The notes beneath the pieces are model-generated. The model had not been told where the DNA came from and did not search any database. It saw only the letters and a program-made list of their open reading frames with translations. The translations under genes and the position numbers were made by a program. Below, piece after piece: positions 867-31,460 of a stretch of 39,466 bases of DNA. The stretch is from a virus (lineage: Duplodnaviria > Heunggongvirae > Uroviricota > Caudoviricetes). Positions within the stretch are counted from its first letter, which is position 1; the number at the start of each line of letters is the position of its first letter. The stretch lies in the IMG/VR virus record IMGVR_UViG_2531839252_000006, one strand, 5' to 3'.

Positions 867-3599
867 TTAATTTGCAAGCTTATTTTCCAGTTCTTCAATC
901 CTCTTTATAATATTTTTCTGACGTATACCTAATGCAGCAATCATTAGATACTGTAATTCATCATTTCTGAATGCATAGCGTTCTCCTGCTTCATGCGTAA
1001 TAGTTATAGCCTCACGAACAAGGTTACCTTCATCATCATAAACAGCTGGATCTGTATCTGTATATGCATCCCATCTGTCATAGCAGATCGCTCCGTATTT
1101 AAATGGATCAAGTCCATTCTCTCTGAATATTTCCATTGCCCGTTGCACCGTAAGTCCGGCATGAAGTCTGGCATCAGCTCCCTTATTTTTTACACTATCA
1201 AGCCATTGATAAAAACCAATTTCATCAACAAGAGCTAACCCAACCGCCTGCTCTTTATCGGAAAGAGTTCTGACTTCCGTTTTCTCTGTTGCATCAGATG
1301 TATTTATAGTTGCAGTCCCTGCGTAGACCTGAGAAAAGCGGTTAACGGACCTTCCAAGTGATACCTGGTTATCAGTTGTTGGCCTTAATGTCGTCGTCGC
1401 CCATGTCGATGTAGTATCTTTAGTCGCAGAAAATACTGTTACATTCCCCTGCTTAAGTCTGACGACACCTCCATCTGTAGAGGCAAGTATCAACTCACCA
1501 GCCGCAGATGGACAATCAGCAGCATGGATATCAATATAAGCACCACCCGCAGTATTCCCATCTTTAGAACGGAACTGCATACCTCGAAAGTTTGAGTCGA
1601 ATACTGCTTTCGTACTTACCCATGAATTATTGTCATGTCCGTAATCTGTATCAAACAGGTTAAGGTTATTTCCATAATTCAACTCGAGGGATTTGGTATA
1701 CTCTCCAATGGCTTCGTCAAATATCGCAATAGTAAATGAACCGTGCTCACGGTTAAAGGCGATATCAGTTCCAGCATAATATTGATGCGCGGTTCCGGTA
1801 TACGGATCGGATTCTGCACCATGCACTGGATGGTTGCCAAGAATATCAGACAGGTTTGCTATTCCAAACAGATGCTTATTTCTGCGAGTATAATCACCTG
1901 ATTTATATGTTGCGCCTGAATCCCATTCACCACTTGTCGCTGCAAGCGATGTTTTTAACCAATAAGACCTGTTTGTCGGAAGATTTCCCTTGTTATCACC
2001 AGTAACAATACTTACCCAATTTTTACCACGATGGCTTACAACATCCCCTGCGCTTTTCCATACATCCATAGCACCACAGACAAGTTCATCACCTCTTATT
2101 GCCAGCCCTTCAGGCTCAAAGCTAACCGGAACTCCGATTTTAGAGTCAGAACCATTTAACTGAGTCTCTGTATAAAGTGATGCGGCAAGTGATACAGGAA
2201 ATGAACGTATTAGCGTACCACCCATATCATAAATCTGTACTGTCCTTACGCATCTTGCAGGAACGCCACCCCAAATTGTGTAAATATATCTGCTATCTGA
2301 TGTAATACCCTGAAGTGTTGCACCATACTGACCTTTACCACGGACAAGTGGAACAGGACCATTAATCGGTCTAACTTTCATTGGGTTAGAAGAAGATTCC
2401 ACTTCTTTGCGATCATATACGTATAAAAAGCGGCCAGTCCCAGCGTTTGATGTCGCAATTAATATGACATATCGCCCATCATTAGATACACAAATACTTG
2501 CCCGCTGCGCAAGGTTAATCAGATTATTATCACCCGGCTCACCAAATACTCGGTAATGAGTTATATCTTCAGCAGATGTTGATGCCCCTTTCCATTTTGT
2601 CTTTGAATACCCCTTCCCTCCTAGAGAGGAACCAGTCTCAGCAATTGTTGTTGTAAACAGATATAGTTCACCGTTCTCTATTGTGGCAGAAAGATCTGAA
2701 CCGTGACCAAGAGGCAATGGCTCTGTAAATGTCACAACATAAAGAGTTGAACCATCGCTTGTATAGTGCCACTCACTGATCCTTGTGAGGGTGTCCGTTC
2801 CCCAGTTAGAACCTCCAACCTGTTGAGTGATAAAAACCTTCTCAATACCTTCATGCCTTACACAAGCTATTCCCTGCAATGCATTTTGTGCATTCGCATA
2901 TATAGTTGGCGCATTGATATCATCACCAAAATTCAGGGTCGCAAGTTTTCTTTGTCCAATGGAGAAACTTTGCATCGGCGGATTAACAGAAATGCGAACA
3001 CCATTACTGATTAGAACACCATCACCGGAGAAGCGTGAAATATCTATTTTCGATGCATCAACTATAAACTCACCAGAAGGCACATGAACCAAACCACTAT
3101 TTCCTGCGCTAGATGCGGCGTCAAGAAAAGCCTGTGTTGAATCTCTATTCGCAGAGTCATCCGCCCCCCACCCGCGAACGTCTTTATCATCCCGCCATCG
3201 TGCAATCTGTAATTCAGGGTATTTTTTAGCACCATCAGGATCTTCTAATTGCTGCCGTAACTGATCCGGGTCATACTTCAGCACATTCGGAAAATAGAAC
3301 TGCTGCGTACCATAAGCATCGTACACAGCCATAGAGTGTCCTTTCACAGTAACGAATTTGGCAATCTGTCCGTTATATACAGGATATCCAGCAGCATTGA
3401 TAACGATTGGTTGCGAAACAGGAACGTGAGAACCTTCTTCATTCTCTACATAAACCTGAATCTGGTTTTCAGGATTTACAGGGTCAGTGTCAATTTTACC
3501 GATATAAATTTTGCCATTAGCTACGGCTTTAAAAGAACGAGCCATAGTGAAGAGTTGCGAAGGCATCCCAATTACAACATTTGGAGTTATATCAGGCAT
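867..3599 (-). CDS. Tailspike protein: P22 gp9-type head-binding N-terminal domain joined to a different receptor-binding domain and a C-terminal intramolecular-chaperone-like region; candidate endosialidase.
   Basis: N-terminal about 110 aa ([59 protein letters not shown] ... NVLKYDPDQ) match the remembered P22/Sf6/HK620 tailspike head-binding domain. Asp-box-like motifs ([16 protein letters not shown]) sit in the middle. The C-terminus ([10 protein letters not shown] ... [13 protein letters not shown]) resembles peptidase S74 chaperone domains. The long ORF extends to 3752, but the start was chosen at the ATG at 3599 with AGGA 8 nt upstream; ATG 3608 is an alternative. Confidence 0.8.
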
Positions 3600-3933
3600 A
3601 TTAGTCATCCTGTTTGAAAATTTAGATATTGAAGAAAACGGAATGACTGCAGACAAAGATGCAATTGTTTTGAAAAATAATCTTCTATTCACTTTAAAAC
3701 TATGCAACATGAACAAAACAATTATTTTACAACAAACAAGAATCTTGATCAACAGACATATGCTTTATGCGTTTAATGCGTCATTTAAAAATAACAAGTA
3801 CTACTTTTATTCCTATCGTCCATGATTTTCATTTTCAAATATTATTAAATAACAATTCCTATTTATAATATCTGTCATTTAATTTGCTCCAGATACAAGG
3901 AATCGCCGCAGCATGGCTACGGTGAATTTTGGG

Positions 3934-3978: not shown

Positions 3979-4881
3979 TCAGTAGTTATGTACTGAAGGA
4001 GGCAATTCTTTATTCTTAAGTCTCATCCATGCGGAAAGATTCGTTGGTCCGTCTGGCTCATTGATATCAACATCTCGTGTGTGATTGATTAAAACGTCTC
4101 TCGCCATTCCGATAACATACGAGAATTCATGACCGTAGTCGTAGCATCTGCCGGAATAGTTCGATTGAATTTGTTTTAGCGCCGGATACAGTTCGCGGAA
4201 TAATGCCTGTGAACGGTTGGCATAATCCCATAACCATACAAGGCTGTTTGCTTCTTTTGCAGAAAGCTCGTTTGCTTTCTTCTCTTGTTTGCCAATAAAC
4301 TCGCCTTCAAGCACTACCCTGTGGATGTACTCTACTGCTTGCGGTATCTGAGATGCATCAAGCTCTTCAATACTTTCCACGTTGAAACGCTGATGAATCA
4401 TTGCATAAGCTTCTGGGTACATTAGATGCTTTTTGCTGACTAGCATATTTACAGCATCACGAAGCGGAGTCCTGTCATCAACAGATGTTTTCTTACGTGC
4501 ATTTTCTTCCTTTCCCTTCGTCCAGTAGTCATGCAGCACGCTAAAGCATTCCTCCTGGTACTGAATCAGTTTATCACGGATGTCAGCACGAACTTTCTCA
4601 GGGTTGATGCTGAACAGCCATCCATTTAACTTCTTCAAAGGAAGGCAGAGTAGCTTACGAAGCTTCCCATCAGCGGCAACCATGTCCATATGAACACAGT
4701 TGAATTTGCTAATCTGCTTCATGAGTTTTGTTTGCTGCGTTGACCAGCTCATTCCAAGGTTTTCAACGATTGGCTTCATCGCAACATATGCAACTCCGGC
4801 AGCCATGGCGGTGATAATTTGCTGACCGTTGAATGGTACGTAAGAGGTGTTCACTGCTTCTAAAATTGCTATACTATTCAT
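3979..4881 (-). CDS. ant: Antirepressor Ant (immI region), 300 aa.
   Basis: Translation from [21 protein letters not shown] gives 300 aa, the length of P22 Ant, with a GGAG 10 nt upstream. Its position downstream of arc matches P22 immI. Confidence 0.85.
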
Positions 4882-4949
4882 GTTGGTTTTTCTCCACGGA
4901 TTTACTGACAACCGAAGCCCTGACTGTTCCCGCAGTTGGGGCTTCAACT

Positions 4950-5201: not shown

Positions 5202-5453
5202 ATGGCTAGAGATGATCCGCACTTTAACTTCCGTATGCCTATGGAAGTAAGGGAGAAATTAAAATTCAGGGCGGAGGCGAATGGGAGATCAATGAACTCC
5301 GAGTTGTTACAAATCGTCCAAGATGCTCTATCAAAACCATCGCCTGTGACTGGATATCGCGACGATGCAGAACGACTCGCTGATGAGCAGTCAGAGCTTG
5401 TTAAGAAGATGGTGTTTGATACGCTGAAGGATTTGTACAAAAAACCCACCTGA
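5202..5453 (+). CDS. mnt: Mnt repressor, 83 aa.
   Basis: Translation MARDDPHFNFRMPMEVREKLKFRAEANGRSMNSELLQIVQDALSKPSPVTGYRDDAERLADEQSELVKKMVFDTLKDLYKK matches P22 Mnt (ribbon-helix-helix N-terminus). Confidence 0.9.
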   Translation: MARDDPHFNFRMPMEVREKLKFRAEANGRSMNSELLQIVQDALSKPSPVTGYRDDAERLADEQSELVKKMVFDTLKDLYKKPT

Positions 5454-5462
5454 AGGTGGGTC
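5439..5462. terminator. Hairpin cccacc-tgaa-ggtggg flanked by an A-run on plus (T-run on minus); terminator for the minus-strand lipoprotein gene, possibly bidirectional.
   Basis: Seen directly; overlaps the mnt stop codon. Confidence 0.5.
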
Positions 5463-5469
5463 CTATTTA

Positions 5470-5889
5470 TTAGTCTTGCTTTGTTGATGGTATAAGAGAT
5501 GCGTTTGCCTCTTTTGGCTTCAAGGTATACATCCCACCATTAAAAGGATCTACAGCAAGCCAACCAATTAACCCACCAAACACAAGGTTTCCACCAATAT
5601 ACCAGCCATTAGCATTGGCTTTGATTGGCAGGGTAACTGGTTCGTACCCATCCTTTTCCATAGTGATCTGGTAGCTCTTTTTGCCAAAATAACTACCATC
5701 TGACTTGGCAAGAGTTACTCCTTGTGGGGTCTTACCTTGCGCAACAATCACGCCTGATTCGTCTTTTACCTTAAAGCTCGCACCGGAAGGATTGCTGTTC
5801 ACTTGCACAAGCTGCGTTTCGTCACCAACAATAGTTGCGCACCCAGATAACAATATAGCGCCAGCAACGACGCCAATAATCCTCTTCAT
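5470..5889 (-). CDS. Predicted lipoprotein of unknown function (moron at the P22 sieA position).
   Basis: Start chosen at MKRIIGVVAGAILLSGC: signal peptide with lipobox LSGC. Glycine-rich C-terminal segment. Lies between immI and the ejection-protein genes. Confidence 0.6.
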   Translation of the reverse strand: MKRIIGVVAGAILLSGCATIVGDETQLVQVNSNPSGASFKVKDESGVIVAQGKTPQGVTLAKSDGSYFGKKSYQITMEKDGYEPVTLPIKANANGWYIGGNLVFGGLIGWLAVDPFNGGMYTLKPKEANASLIPSTKQD

Positions 5890-6006
5890 ATCAATTTCCA
5901 TATTTAAAAAACCGGAAACATCCTAATGACAAACCATTCAAATGTGAAGTAGGCAAAAGATGTTTACTTTTTTCATGGTATCCTGCTCAAAACTAAGGAG
6001 GTTGGC

Positions 6007-6396
6007 GTGAAGCAATTTCTTACTGCTATGTTCTTATTCATATCTTTTGGGGCTACAGCAGAGTGCTGGGTCGTTGGAGATATGCGCGGAATAAGCTATT
6101 CAGAACGAAATAATTTCCACCCGGAAGAAGATGGTTTTAGTGGAACATTCATCATTAAGACAAACGGTGAAGATGCCAGCATCACATATTCTGGGACAGA
6201 TGCGGGCGGCATGGCTTACAAAGCATTGTCTAAAAACTCCATCATAGGAATCGGCGCGAATGGCGAAACTCAACGCGTTATCGACTCATGGGTAATACAT
6301 CCTACTGGAACAGTTTTAATGTCAAAAACCATTTCCGGTTATGGAAATATGGATTCAACCAAAGCTTTTGTTGGAAAAGTAAAAAGAAAATGTTAG
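6007..6396 (+). CDS. Predicted secreted/periplasmic protein of unknown function (GTG start).
   Basis: AAGGAGG 6 nt upstream of GTG. N-terminal signal peptide MKQFLTAMFLFISFGATA. Divergent from the lipoprotein gene. Confidence 0.55.
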   Translation: MKQFLTAMFLFISFGATAECWVVGDMRGISYSERNNFHPEEDGFSGTFIIKTNGEDASITYSGTDAGGMAYKALSKNSIIGIGANGETQRVIDSWVIHPTGTVLMSKTISGYGNMDSTKAFVGKVKRKC

Positions 6397-6420: not shown

Positions 6421-8247
6421 TTACTGCTGTGTTGCCTCAGTAGCAAACAGCGGTCTGATGGCATTCGCAGCGTTATTTATCGCTCTTTCATAGGCTGGTG
6501 TTCCTGCTTTGGTGTTTGCCAAACGAAGAAGCATATTTCTTGCTGCTTTGGACTCATACAAGCGCATCATTGCACCAAAACCAGCCTCAAGCCCCATTGA
6601 TACGCCAAGGGTCGCAGTTGCGCCAATCGTCCTTATCCTGTTGGCTTGCGATTGCCCCGTCTGAGTTACTACATTTGCGGTGTCTGACCTTGCTGTTTGC
6701 TGTAGAACTTCATGAAGAGCATCAAGCTCTTTCATGTGCTTTCCAGAAAAAATAGTGTTGTAAATTTCACCGCCTGACTGAGATTTCAGCTTATTAACTT
6801 CAGTGATGAACTTGGCTGGAGAGTCCCCGGCCTTTTCCGCTATTTTGCTGACGTAAGCTGCACGCATAGCATCTTTCCCCTTATCATCCAGTGCGCTCCA
6901 GATTCGTTTCACGTCAGATGGTTTTCTGCTTAATACAACGGTATTTATAAGTTCAGGACTGGCTTCGCTGCTTGCCTTGTTGAGCTTGTTGGCAATGTTT
7001 TTATTAAGCACCTTATTATAAACGTTTGCATAATCGGAATTTGCTTTAAGGTATTTTGCTGCGTCTGATGCACCGAGGTTTTTAGCAACTGCGTTACGAA
7101 GGTCTTTTGACATTGCATTCTCTACCATATTGGTAGCTGCTTTTGCCTGGTTGGGGAAGACCATAGCATCTCCCTGAACATTAGATCTAAATGCTGTTCT
7201 GTGCTGACGCAAGAGATCAAACGTAACATCCAAATCAGTTGCAGGGTTTGCTAATTCTTCACGTAGGTTACGCAAGGATGTAAGCAGGCTTTGATTGGCA
7301 GACGTCCCAAGCCGTTCCTGTCTTGCGATCGCTGTATTCAGAGCATTCATGGTATTTGTGGTATCAACTGCGGCATTACCCATTTTATTGGTGACGTCAT
7401 TGATAACAGCGCCAGCGGCATCCTTCCGCCCCCTTAACGTGGTGGTAAGAGATTTCACCACATCATCAGGGTTGTACTCACCAAAACGGTCAAAATAATT
7501 GCTTACCAGCTTACTACGCGTTGCATATTGCTCCGCTCGCTTTGAGCCTGTCCCGAGCAAAGCCCCCTCAGCATCCTGAGTAAGTCCGCGAGTGAAAGCA
7601 TTTTTCGGCGGGATAACATCAGATGTCATTGGTGTCACGCCCATCGATTCTGATGTGGCAATTTTCTTCGCCACTTCTGGCGCAATATCACCTTTTATAG
7701 CCGTTATTCCACGCCCTATTCCCTTTGCTGCTGCGGAAAGAACACCCTGAGCGGCAAGGTTAACTCCGGCATTTTTAGCTGCATTTTGTGCGAAATCACC
7801 TTTCTGATTTGCGGCCTCTGCCAGTGATCCAATAGCCATACTTCCTGCCGTTCCAACTCCTGGAACTAAATACCCGCCAATTGTTTCTCCAGCTTGAGCG
7901 TAGGAGTCTGTCGGTCTGTCTACTGGACGATAGACATCATCCAATACTTTTGGCCCACCAAGCCCCTGACTGATTGCATTAATCAGACTTGCGCCACCCT
8001 GCAATACGTCAAATGGTATGTTTACCAGACCACGACCAGCCTGTTCTGCAATTTGCCCTGCACTTTGACCACCAGTGAGCCAGTCAGTAGCTTTTCCTAC
8101 CAGAGATTGTTCTTCTGGCTGCGATTGGTTTTGGGTGGATTGATCACCAGAAGACAGCATCTGAGCAATGCGACGTGCTCCCTCAGTATCACCAGCAGCA
8201 TCAGCATTCCTTAACGCCGTCATCAATTGTTCACGACTATAAGCCAT
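6421..8247 (-). CDS. Ejection (injection) protein, P22 gp16-like, 608 aa.
   Basis: Size and position immediately downstream of the gp20-like gene match the P22 order 7-20-16; Ala/Gly-rich composition. Confidence 0.75.
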
Positions 8248-9642: not shown

Positions 9643-10338
9643 TTAATAAAGCAGTGAACCAAGCAGACCGATACCAGCACCGATACCAGCACCCCACGGA
9701 GTTGATGAACCAATTAATTTCGCAAGTCCAGCCCCAGCAATGGCACCAGACGCACCTCCACCAATAGCAGATTGCAATGCTGACGGTCGGTTGGCGTTTG
9801 CCGCAGCCAGCGCCGCGCTTTGCTGTGAAATCTGACTCATGTTGTTGGCATATGTTTGCCCGGCATTTGCCTGACCCTGAAGCGCGCCAAGACCAATATT
9901 TGCCAGATTCTGGTAGTTGTTCATCTGACCAGACAGCCACTGCTGACCAAGCGTTGGTGCGATTGTTGCTAACTGATTACTGGTTGCGGTGGAACCCAAT
10001 CCACCTGTTGCTTCCGCTGCCGCCAGACTCTGATAGCGCGCCTGACCAGCAAAGTCTTTGTACTGCTGAGAGTTGTAATACTGGTTAAGCGCCTGACCTT
10101 GCCCCTCCAGAGACGATAAGTTCTCGAGGCTGCCGACATACTTCTCAGCCAGAGGAGTAAACGGTTTCAGGTTGTTCATGATGGTGTTGAACTGCTGATT
10201 TTGCAGGTCTGCGGCATACTTCTGAGCTTCTGCTGCATACTTTGCGCTTTTATCAGAGCTGCCACCTTTCCCGCCTTTTTCAGGGCAATAAGGTTCCTCG
10301 CCGCGCAGTTTTCTGCCCAGCTTAAATGCATATAACAT
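9643..10338 (-). CDS. Ejection protein, P22 gp7-like, 231 aa.
   Basis: Size (P22 gp7 about 229 aa) and synteny. Confidence 0.7.
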   Translation of the reverse strand: MLYAFKLGRKLRGEEPYCPEKGGKGGSSDKSAKYAAEAQKYAADLQNQQFNTIMNNLKPFTPLAEKYVGSLENLSSLEGQGQALNQYYNSQQYKDFAGQARYQSLAAAEATGGLGSTATSNQLATIAPTLGQQWLSGQMNNYQNLANIGLGALQGQANAGQTYANNMSQISQQSAALAAANANRPSALQSAIGGGASGAIAGAGLAKLIGSSTPWGAGIGAGIGLLGSLLY

Positions 10339-10340
10339 GG

Positions 10341-10796
10341 CTATCTCCCGTTATTCAGGAAGTCGATTAGTTCTTCACGTGTGGCGCTGTAAAACGTCAC
10401 GTCATCCACGCCTTTGAAGTATTTCTTGATAGTTCCTACACGCTTAAGGCCAATCATTGCGCAGTACATCTGCCCGTGGCGGAATTTGCGCGCAGCGAAC
10501 GATGTGACGCACTGAACGGTGGTGTTAGTCAGAATGTATCGCCAGAACGCCAGACCGATTTCCTTGCTGAAGCCGCGAACCTCTGGCAGGTACATGGCGT
10601 GGCAATCGAATGTCAGCGGCTGAATCTCCTGATAGTAAACAATGCCGCCAAACTGACCGTGCACGTTAACCTCAAAGTAACGGCATTCAGGCTTGTAGTC
10701 GTATCCATCACCGTTGTTGCTCCCGGCGATAATGTCGGGGTGATTTCCCACGGCTTCTATCAGGTCGATGTTTCGCGTTGGTTTGAATGTAATCAT
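10341..10796 (-). CDS. P22 gp14-like virion protein, 151 aa.
   Basis: Position between the tail needle and gp7 homologues. Confidence 0.6.
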   Translation of the reverse strand: MITFKPTRNIDLIEAVGNHPDIIAGSNNGDGYDYKPECRYFEVNVHGQFGGIVYYQEIQPLTFDCHAMYLPEVRGFSKEIGLAFWRYILTNTTVQCVTSFAARKFRHGQMYCAMIGLKRVGTIKKYFKGVDDVTFYSATREELIDFLNNGR

Positions 10797-11497
10797 CAGT
10801 CAATCAGCCCATGTAATCTAAGTGCTGTTTCAAGCGCCAGAATACGCTGCCGCGACTGCTGCAAACCTGTAGCGAGATCTGCGACTTCGGATTGTGCGTA
10901 CGTAGTGCCGACAGTGTATGACTGGTTAGCGTTGAATGAGCCAAGAAGTGGCGTACCTGTGGCTGCAGTCCATCCGGTATTTCTTGCTCCAACAACCTGA
11001 ATGCCATCAACTGAATATGATGTTTTTACATCCAGCGGTGACGCAAGAGACTGCGATTCGGTTACGGTTTTCGATACGTAATCACTCTTAATGCCAGAGA
11101 CATCGTTTTCTACGTCATCCAGTCTTTGGTCAACAGTGACCAGATGCGCCTGAATATCGATAACCTCATCCAGCAAGTAATCAACATCGCTACGCAGTAC
11201 GACTATCTTCCCTTCGGCAGTTGTTAACCTGACCTCAAGTAGATTTATCGCTTTTGTGTTTGCGGTGATTCTTGCGTCGTGCTCAGCCAGTTCGACATCC
11301 TGTTCATCGTTTTTTACCTGGGCATCGTAAGCGCCCTGACCAGCCTGATTTGCCTTCCCGGCAATTGCGCCGACATCAGCCCCCTGATTAATGACATACA
11401 GCAGGTAAGACTGGCTGAATATATTGCGTGGAAGGATTGATGTATCGAGCCGCGTCGCCTGTACAATAACAGGTGTGTTGAGATTTGAATCAGCCAT
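10796..11497 (-). CDS. Tail needle protein, P22 gp26-like, 233 aa.
   Basis: N-terminus [39 protein letters not shown] and coiled-coil heptads match the remembered P22 gp26; same length. Confidence 0.85.
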
Positions 11498-30809: not shown

Positions 30810-31460
30810 ATGAATACACAACTGATGGGTGAGCGTATTCGCGCTCGCAGAAAAGAACTCAAGATTAGGCAGGCTGCCCTTGGCAAGATGGTTGGCGTGT
30901 CTAATGTTGCTATTTCCCAATGGGAGCGTTCTGAAACTGAGCCCAATGGCGAAAACCTATTGGCCTTAGCCAAGGCTTTGCAGTGCTCCCCTGATTACTT
31001 GTTGAAAGGAGAAGATAGTCTTTCAAACATTGCCTATCACAGCAGGCATGATCCAAGAGGTTCGTATCCTCTAATTAGTTGGGTAAGCGCAGGATGTTGG
31101 ATGGAAGCTGTAGAGCCATATCATAAGCGTGCAATAGATAACTGGTACGATACAACCGTAGATTGTTCAGAAGATTCGTTTTGGCTGGACGTAAAGGGTG
31201 ATTCGATGACGGCTCCAGCCGGTCTTAGCATCCCGGAAGGGATGATAATACTAGTCGATCCTGAAGTAGAACCTCGTAATGGGAAGCTGGTAGTGGCAAA
31301 GCTCGAAGGAGAAAACGAGGCAACTTTCAAGAAGTTAGTTATTGATGCTGGCAGAAGGTTTCTAAAACCACTTAACCCACAATATCCGATGATTGAGATC
31401 AACGGGAACTGCAAAATCATCGGTGTAGTTGTCGATGCAAAAATAGCAAACCTTCCATAA
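30810..31460 (+). CDS. c2: Prophage repressor C2 (CI-type, LexA-like S24 autopeptidase fold), 216 aa.
   Basis: Translation MNTQLMGERIRARRKELKIRQAALGKMVGVSNVAISQWERSE ... GDSM ... matches remembered P22 C2; same length. Confidence 0.9.
   Translation: MNTQLMGERIRARRKELKIRQAALGKMVGVSNVAISQWERSETEPNGENLLALAKALQCSPDYLLKGEDSLSNIAYHSRHDPRGSYPLISWVSAGCWMEAVEPYHKRAIDNWYDTTVDCSEDSFWLDVKGDSMTAPAGLSIPEGMIILVDPEVEPRNGKLVVAKLEGENEATFKKLVIDAGRRFLKPLNPQYPMIEINGNCKIIGVVVDAKIANLP

Follow-up and report, generated by a model that had tools for sequence, protein, structure and literature searches.

A Hex-family gene in the sieA slot and a neighbouring lipoprotein moron in a P22-like Escherichia coli prophage

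Between the immI repressor gene mnt and the DNA ejection gene 16 of a P22-like prophage, two genes for predicted envelope proteins occupy the place that in P22 belongs to the superinfection-exclusion gene sieA. The prophage is the IMG/VR virus record IMGVR_UViG_2531839252_000006, a stretch of 39,466 nucleotides (hereafter the window) that represents a complete P22-like (Lederbergvirus-type) prophage of Escherichia coli. The initial annotation had placed the two genes at 5470–6396, and open reading frames (ORFs) were found exactly there, at 5470–5901 on the minus strand and at 6007–6396 on the plus strand. It had also described a lipobox (LSGC) on the minus-strand product, a signal peptide on the plus-strand product and a position equivalent to that of sieA, all of which were borne out. 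Both products are predicted from these signals to be envelope-targeted, and sequence comparison found them unrelated to one another and to SieA. The order and orientation of genes match those of P22, which has mnt (+), orf59 (+), sieA (+) and gene 16 (−) where the window has mnt (+), the lipoprotein gene (−), a gene that we call Hex-like (+) and gene 16 (−). Profile searches, proposed at the same time, assigned the lipoprotein to phrog_6823 and the Hex-like protein to phrog_2651.

Over the region of the two genes, E. coli MS 16-3 is 100% identical, and identity reaches 99.8% in several further strains, among them FORC_031 and A35. Both genes are variably present among otherwise syntenic phages and differ in base composition from their neighbours (GC content of 0.448 for the lipoprotein gene and 0.41 for the Hex-like gene, versus 0.506 for the late genes), as expected of morons. 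Both are under purifying selection, with a ratio of nonsynonymous to synonymous substitution rates (dN/dS) of 0.2–0.27 for the Hex-like gene and a dN of 0.13–0.27, at saturated dS, for the lipoprotein gene.

A Hex-family gene behind the sieA leader

The Hex-like gene (6007–6396, +; 129 residues) opens with a GTG codon at 6007, with the sequence AAGGAGG five bases 5′ of it (5995–6001), and both elements are conserved across contexts. Its product begins with a Sec-type signal peptide of 18 residues (6007–6060; MKQFLTAMFLFISFGATA|EC) that ends in ATA|EC. The mature chain of 111 residues is predicted to be all-beta; it carries Cys20 and Cys129, one near either end, and no hydrophobic or transmembrane segment was seen outside the signal peptide. 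It is predicted to be an exported, 8-stranded beta-barrel of ~12 kDa. An integral outer-membrane barrel of the Lom/OmpX type was considered and set aside: the strands are short (mostly 5–9 residues), the last strand has charges on both faces, a C-terminal aromatic residue is absent, and the cysteines near both ends of the mature chain also speak against such a fold. The RefSeq record WP_001334102, produced by the Prokaryotic Genome Annotation Pipeline (PGAP), starts the gene at an internal ATG to give 122 residues and so cuts into the signal peptide (6007–6030); this start call is probably wrong.

An exhaustive HMMER search returned 89 cluster representatives of the same length. In an alignment of 45 diverse members, Cys20 and Gly123 are invariant, Gly28 and Trp95 nearly so, and at least 90% of the members have Cys129. 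In all 45, an n-region and a hydrophobic core are followed by small residues at −3/−1, directly before the conserved Cys, and the mature chains contain either 2 or 4 cysteines. Key motifs are kept in homologs that are only 25–50% identical. The protein matched no family in Pfam, NCBIfam or PADLOC, sequence searches of the PDB gave nothing significant for it or for the lipoprotein, and a comparison with BFVD was uninformative. A further homolog search with the family profile contributed little.

Searched with tblastn against a phage collection, the Hex-like protein matched phages 434, lambda imm434, Sf6 (gene 38), HK446, HK633 and Sf101 over its full length, at 27% identity (E-values 8e-5 to 2e-5). 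The coding sequence matched in the 434 records lies directly 3′ of cI; it is annotated as 'repressor protection protein' and is Hex. The same phrog_2651 profile is matched by both the Hex-like protein (2.9e-61) and 434 Hex (1.4e-58), and hhalign aligned the two at 98.2% probability (E-value 6e-14, 128 columns). These comparisons identify the Hex-like protein as a member of the phage 434 Hex/Sf6 gp38 family. Besides homology over the full length and a similar size, the window protein shares with Hex and Sf6 gp38 a signal peptide that ends right before E-C-W, a conserved ETW/SW motif and a C-terminal FVG...G.C containing the second Cys; 434 Hex itself reads MIRIAALLSILLTTSANS|ECW...GTCNQ, with a signal peptide and both cysteines. 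Hex and the window gene are also alike in the kind of prophage region that they occupy, one active in the lysogen and known for exclusion genes. Their sites differ, however. The 434 hex gene lies directly 3′ of cI, overlaps the cI stop codon by 4 nt and is carried on the PRM transcript, and Sf6 gene 38 likewise follows the repressor gene, whereas the window gene occupies the slot of sieA and follows its leader.

This leader comprises 47 nt (5960–6006, +), 44 of which are identical to the sequence upstream of P22 sieA, and identity to P22 falls away beyond −47. The Hex-like gene and P22 sieA have the same GTG start behind it and the same orientation, convergent with gene 16, and both encode envelope proteins. 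From its start codon on, ORF 6007–6396 (+) is an exact allelic replacement of sieA. The leader contains the AAGGAGG element, a Shine–Dalgarno sequence, and an extended −10-like TGgTATCCT (5976–5984); the latter is the sole promoter-like element seen in the shared 47 nt, and we infer that it is a candidate promoter of the Hex-like gene. In P22, a single copy of sieA with 85 bp of upstream sequence conferred exclusion of at least 1e8-fold (Leavitt et al. 2024, PMC10883804), so the expression signals lie near the gene. The proteins encoded behind the leader are nevertheless of different kinds: SieA spans the inner membrane several times and bears the motif FxRYPxEAxxFNK (PMC10883804), whereas the window protein is soluble and a predicted exported beta-barrel. 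BLASTP found no similarity between it and P22 SieA type A (E-value 0.99), the motif is absent from its sequence, and it is not a SieA.

The leader also occurs ahead of other genes. In epsilon34, the 90 nt upstream are identical to the window at 89 of 90 positions, yet the next ORF is hkcB. We scanned IMG/VR for the exact 28-nt leader core GGTATCCTGCNCAAAACTAAGGAGGTTG, adding the loci already collected, and found it in more than 119 viral contigs (loci L179–L297 among the matches listed). Among these listed matches, 136 non-identical leader sites are followed by ORFs of at least 12 unrelated families. The Hex-like gene is the commonest cargo (42 sites), followed by hkcB-like genes (24), a 109-residue protein that combines a transmembrane segment with a coiled coil (17), two small two-transmembrane proteins (11 and 9), SieA type A (7) and several others, and all but one of the listed cargo families have a predicted signal peptide or transmembrane segment. 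In this respect the leader resembles a recombination 'socket' for envelope-protein cargo.

A frameshifted Hex-like allele of 134 residues is also widespread (cluster P0132, 642 member sequences). The frameshift replaces the last strand and removes the C-terminal Cys, and the allele is probably an inactivated copy; it is the form found in E. coli O111 strains, which match the region at 926 of 927 nt. A distant family member with a signal peptide and four cysteines lies in a metagenome-assembled genome of Spongiibacteraceae (L303, 4288–4668), beside genes for a type II secretion pseudopilin-like protein and a cyclic-nucleotide-binding protein and with no phage genes within 5 kb. This marine genome was the single match of a genome scan with a distant family member. 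Judging from such members, the Hex family is not confined to enteric phages.

The lipoprotein cassette and its relation to the Hex-like gene

The lipoprotein gene, called as an ORF at 5470–5901 (−), almost certainly starts at ATG 5889, which is where the PHROG profile and every homolog begin, and not at ATG 5901, which is not conserved. From this start it spans 5470–5889 (−) and encodes 139 residues (MKRII...), corresponding to epsilon34 gp15 and to phrog_6823. The signal peptide leads into the lipobox LLSG|C, with Cys17 encoded at 5839–5841, Ala at +2 and Thr at +3. Across 42 homologs the lipobox Cys and the Ala at +2 are invariant and no Asp is found at +2, and six family members match LPAM_1; by the +2 rule, the lipoprotein is predicted to be sorted to the outer membrane. 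More than 700 homologs were found across Enterobacterales, and those with 56–81% identity keep the key motifs invariant. The protein has a predicted beta-sandwich that resembles transthyretin, CnaB and carboxypeptidase-regulatory folds and scores slightly below the gathering threshold for PEGA (PF08308). Searches of Pfam, NCBIfam and PADLOC gave only sub-threshold matches, to PEGA and LEPBI_I2678. The C-terminal segment is Gly-rich and conserved (NGWYIGGN-FGGLIGW-VDPFNGGMYTL-P); it is modelled with low confidence, and its hydropathy is under the level of a transmembrane segment.

A terminator scan and RNA folds placed a bidirectional intrinsic terminator at 5444–5461, common to mnt on the plus strand and the lipoprotein gene on the minus strand. 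In the minus-strand direction it forms a 9-bp stem, GGACCCACC-UUCA-GGUGGGUUUUUU, followed by U6 (−14.5 kcal/mol), and in the plus-strand direction, serving mnt, a weaker 7-bp stem (−12 kcal/mol). It is kept 3′ of the lipoprotein gene even when the next gene is not mnt. At the other end, a promoter scan found a sigma-70-like candidate at 5920–5948 (−), in which −35 TTCACA and −10 TAGGAT are separated by 17 nt and match the consensus at 9 of 12 positions. Across contigs with differing neighbours, the conserved block of the cassette extends from the −35 hexamer through the terminator. Because its boundaries coincide with these two elements, the lipoprotein gene can be read as a self-contained moron, with predicted promoter, gene and terminator forming one unit.

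The initial annotation had regarded both genes as autonomously expressed morons that were flanked by a terminator and ran counter to the strand logic of the late operon. The late operon occupies the minus strand (genes 20, 16 and the tailspike gene all lie on it), and only the Hex-like gene runs against it; the lipoprotein gene is co-oriented with it. The anatomy of a moron, including the flanking terminator, holds for the lipoprotein gene on its mnt side, but the Hex-like gene has the sieA leader at its 5′ end and no canonical terminator 3′ of it in the terminator scan and RNA folds.

Homologs of the lipoprotein with 68–78% identity occur in siphovirus prophages, there without a Hex-like neighbour. 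In HK97-like E. coli prophages and in prophages of Proteus, the gene is inserted between those for the tail chaperone and the tape measure, where HK97 carries its exclusion moron, gene 15 (PMC3594210); in Pseudescherichia it lies between tail genes I and J. Homologs of the window lipoprotein thus occupy the insertion point of HK97 gene 15 in HK97-like prophages, and the two families are alike in their promoter–gene–terminator anatomy and in having host chromosomal relatives; HK97 gp15, however, is a small inner-membrane protein related to YebO, whereas the window lipoprotein is unrelated to it in sequence and predicted to reside in the outer membrane. Two lipoprotein-family genes have no phage genes nearby: one in Kosakonia, between pmrD and a metal-repressor/alcohol dehydrogenase (ADH) pair (L298, 6001–6411), and a longer form of 168 residues that adjoins pepN (L302, 2384–2890). 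Given such chromosomal members, a host lipoprotein may be the origin of the phage copies; a similar descent has been proposed for HK97 gp15 and YebO. The HK97-like E. coli prophages with a lipoprotein homolog (L006, L008 and L010, ~10261–11424) also have a gene for an OmpC-like porin inserted between tail genes M and L, which adds another envelope moron to that tail cluster.

Phage-encoded outer-membrane lipoproteins have several precedents. Lambda Bor is a prophage-expressed outer-membrane lipoprotein that confers serum resistance, and the window lipoprotein is predicted to be, like it, an outer-membrane lipoprotein moron; profile searches of the window lipoprotein detected no relationship to Bor. 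Cor (phi80, N15) and T5 Llp are phage outer-membrane lipoproteins that block FhuA, and are envelope-acting as the window lipoprotein is expected to be. Their setting is different, as P22-like phages use O-antigen and not FhuA. We also considered the window lipoprotein as a Cor protein (phrog_1119) and rejected this, since the match is limited to residues 5–24 of the signal peptide and lipobox (E-value 0.0036) and the mature domains are unrelated.

The two genes occur together in a minority of cases. Among 5426 complete E. coli genomes, the lipoprotein gene was found in 124 and the Hex-like gene in 147, with both side by side in 45. Across 160 viral-contig loci, both combine freely with other cargo or occur alone: the Hex-like gene adjoins mnt, orf59 or Emek orf149/161 genes, the lipoprotein gene adjoins hkcB, a third ORF or gene 16 directly, and at two loci (L152 and L069) the gene order is reversed. 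The spacer between them in the window measures 105 bp from ATG 5901 and 117 bp from ATG 5889. It contains two promoter-like elements, 28 bp apart, each of which is retained when its gene stands alone, and a search for operator-like repeats found one weak imperfect inverted repeat (15 nt, 80% complementary). The initial annotation had proposed a pair with a shared divergent control region. That proposal does not hold: the spacer is the junction of two abutting cassette ends, and, since each gene mostly occurs without the other, the two are best described as independent, separately mobile cassettes and not as a functional pair.

Candidate roles and competing explanations

We favour, with a probability of roughly 60%, a reading in which the window carries two independent mobile cassettes, the Hex-like gene encoding a periplasmic exclusion factor against P22-like phages and the lipoprotein gene acting as an envelope moron. 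In the lysogen, each gene would be transcribed from a weak promoter of its own, with starts predicted near 5913 (−) and 5991 (+), and the lipoprotein gene, being co-oriented with the late operon, would also be read through by late transcription towards the tailspike gene. The Hex-like protein would act in the periplasm as a superinfection-exclusion factor, and the step blocked would be formation of the trans-envelope DNA-delivery conduit, which SieA blocks from the inner membrane. The role of the lipoprotein is less certain; it may modify the outer-membrane surface or a receptor and thereby limit phage entry, or confer some other envelope fitness trait. Exported or periplasm-acting exclusion proteins that work at the DNA-entry step are known in P1 (Sim) and T4 (Sp), and provide a precedent, by analogy only, for exclusion from the periplasmic side by the Hex-like protein. 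T4 Imm and Sp are listed among exclusion proteins in PMC11436027.

The exclusion role of the Hex-like gene is a well-grounded hypothesis, because a homolog of the P22-excluding Hex has taken the place of sieA, which itself excludes P22-like phages. The name hex, for 'heterologous exclusion', was given by Susskind and Botstein; according to the paper that cites their work, Salmonella carrying lambda imm434 excludes P22, whereas a hex- prophage does not (Susskind and Botstein 1980, via PMC3564112).

Several points weigh against this reading. Identity to Hex is low, at 27%, and the P22-exclusion phenotype of Hex is taken second-hand from the citing paper (PMC3564112); Hex might exclude P22 either at entry or by abortive infection. 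In the sole biochemical study available, Hex is given a function in the cytoplasm, that of blocking RecA-stimulated cleavage of the 434 and P22 repressors (PMC3564112). Neither protein matched any PADLOC-DB 2.0 model at an E-value of ≤1, and the extended −10 proposed for the Hex-like gene lacks a −35 element and is weak in its hexamer (TATCCT). The roles assigned to both proteins are derived from sequence and position. Finally, both families have members at chromosomal loci without phage genes nearby, and an anti-phage role is therefore not obligatory for either.

A more far-reaching version, which we put forward as tentative, would treat the sieA locus as a plug-in socket, consisting of the ~47-nt leader and the GTG codon, for unrelated envelope cargos with differing exclusion specificities; the Hex family, including 434 Hex, would jointly constitute soluble periplasmic exclusion factors, and the lipoprotein a second exclusion layer. 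Cargo would be swapped by recombination behind the leader, each bringing its own superinfection-exclusion specificity. Hex-family proteins would intercept the gp7/gp20/gp16 conduit or the tail needle in the periplasm, and the lipoprotein would form its layer at the outer membrane while moving freely between podovirus and siphovirus prophages. Were all of this true, the published cytoplasmic 'repressor protection' mechanism of Hex would be overturned.

Somewhat unlikely, in our view, is that one of the genes, or both, has nothing to do with phage defence and serves in lysogenic conversion or host fitness, for example in resistance to serum or complement (as with lambda Bor), in tolerance of envelope stress, in adhesion, or in shielding the cell from colicins or periplasmic toxins. 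Such roles are consistent with the chromosomal lipoprotein genes by pmrD in Kosakonia and by pepN, with the Hex-family gene of Spongiibacteraceae, with the failure of either protein to match an anti-phage model in PADLOC, and with the many morons that have functions of this type (PMC3594210). They would, however, leave aside the genetic exclusion phenotype reported for Hex and the exact substitution of a proven exclusion gene by the Hex-like gene. The lipoprotein gene, moreover, inserts repeatedly by DNA-delivery genes (gene 16, the tape-measure gene and J), and at two such places proven exclusion genes are found, P22 sieA and HK97 gene 15.

The published work on Hex points to a different function. 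Deletion of hex raised spontaneous induction ~30-fold in a recA-dependent manner, overproduction of full-length Hex was toxic, and in vitro the RecA-stimulated cleavage of both the 434 repressor and the P22 repressor was inhibited by sHex, a 6-kDa fragment comprising E43–N103 of a 158-residue ORF (Shkilnyj, Colon and Koudelka 2013, PMC3564112). By extension, the Hex-like protein would be a cytoplasmic 'repressor protection protein' that blocks RecA-stimulated repressor autocleavage and stabilises lysogeny, and the window prophage does have a gene for a LexA-like repressor (30810–31460). We consider this improbable. The 158-residue ORF of Hex consists of 24 residues overlapping cI and a protein of 134 residues (L004, 2429–2905; phage 434, OL657227), and E43 of sHex is E19 of the latter, the first residue past the predicted cleavage site ANS|E. 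The published cytoplasmic mechanism is contradicted by the sequence features: because a signal peptide and an even number of cysteines are found family-wide, the native protein should leave the cytoplasm, and a cytoplasmic site of action is unlikely for it. The fragment sHex is, in addition, a 61-residue piece of the beta-barrel that was purified via guanidine hydrochloride (GuHCl) and used at micromolar excess, in a study that never considers export and makes no mention of a signal peptide, membrane or periplasm (PMC3564112). The Hex-like gene is also unlinked to the repressor gene of its prophage, lying ~24 kb from it in the sieA slot, and the family has members outside a phage context.

It is very unlikely that the two genes work together as a single envelope system of two components, under joint control of a divergent region that they share. 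They are adjacent, divergent and 105–117 bp apart here and in the 45 complete E. coli genomes that carry both, with the imperfect inverted repeat spanning the spacer. Against this stand the 124 and 147 genomes with each gene, the varied neighbours and reversed order in viral contigs, the siphovirus lipoprotein homologs that lack a Hex-like neighbour, and the retention of every promoter-like element with its own gene. Least probable of all is that neither ORF now has a function, both being filler that decays or hitch-hikes at a recombination hot spot; this region changes rapidly (PMC2629481) and the frameshifted P0132 allele is common, but both genes are intact and under purifying selection, with invariant key motifs and conserved expression signals.

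Exclusion and conversion morons are a familiar kind of prophage element, and the region in which these two genes lie is well known to be variable in P22-like phages. Literature searches with the protein accessions and PHROG identifiers returned nothing, and, as far as we searched, the literature contains neither the link of the Hex-like gene to Hex together with the exact substitution of sieA, nor the conflict between the export signals of the Hex family and its published mechanism, nor a sieA leader shared by many interchangeable envelope cargos. If the Hex-like protein does exclude phages from the periplasm, a soluble periplasmic class would join the few known blockers of podovirus DNA delivery and offer a handle, complementary to SieA, on the poorly understood gp7/gp20/gp16 conduit; the 'Hex' phenotype of 1980 would be explained, and the sole mechanistic paper on Hex would need re-examination. 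With swappable cargo behind a shared leader, P22-like prophages in their thousands offer candidate exclusion genes that can be picked out simply by sequence. About 2% of complete E. coli genomes carry the lipoprotein gene, as do numerous other prophages of Enterobacterales; its product is a surface-modifying candidate with relevance to host range in phage therapy.

Prophage setting

The local gene order is tailspike, ant, sar, arc, mnt, lipoprotein gene, Hex-like gene, gene 16 and gene 20. The interval between gene 16 and mnt has been termed the 'ant moron' and is the fastest-changing part of the late region; the epsilon34 genes 14 and 15 within it were listed as of unknown function (Villafane et al. 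2008, PMC2629481). In the window this interval is flanked by mnt, the immI maintenance repressor gene (5202–5453, +), and by the gene 16 homolog for the DNA ejection protein (6421–8247, −), which is convergent with the Hex-like gene. On the far side of mnt and arc lie the sar antisense RNA (4882–4949, +; Rfam RF00262, 95.6 bits) and ant (3979–4881, −), and sar, mnt, arc and ant together make up a complete immI region of the P22 type.

The tailspike gene (867–3677, −) encodes a P22 head-binding domain, an endosialidase-like stalk and a C-terminal Peptidase_S74 intramolecular-chaperone domain, an architecture suggestive of an auto-processed spike with specificity for capsule or O-antigen. Beyond it, at the edge of the window, an ORF for a hexapeptide-repeat acyltransferase (1–711, +) lies where P22-like phages have O-antigen conversion genes and, by analogy with these, may encode a serotype-converting acetyltransferase.

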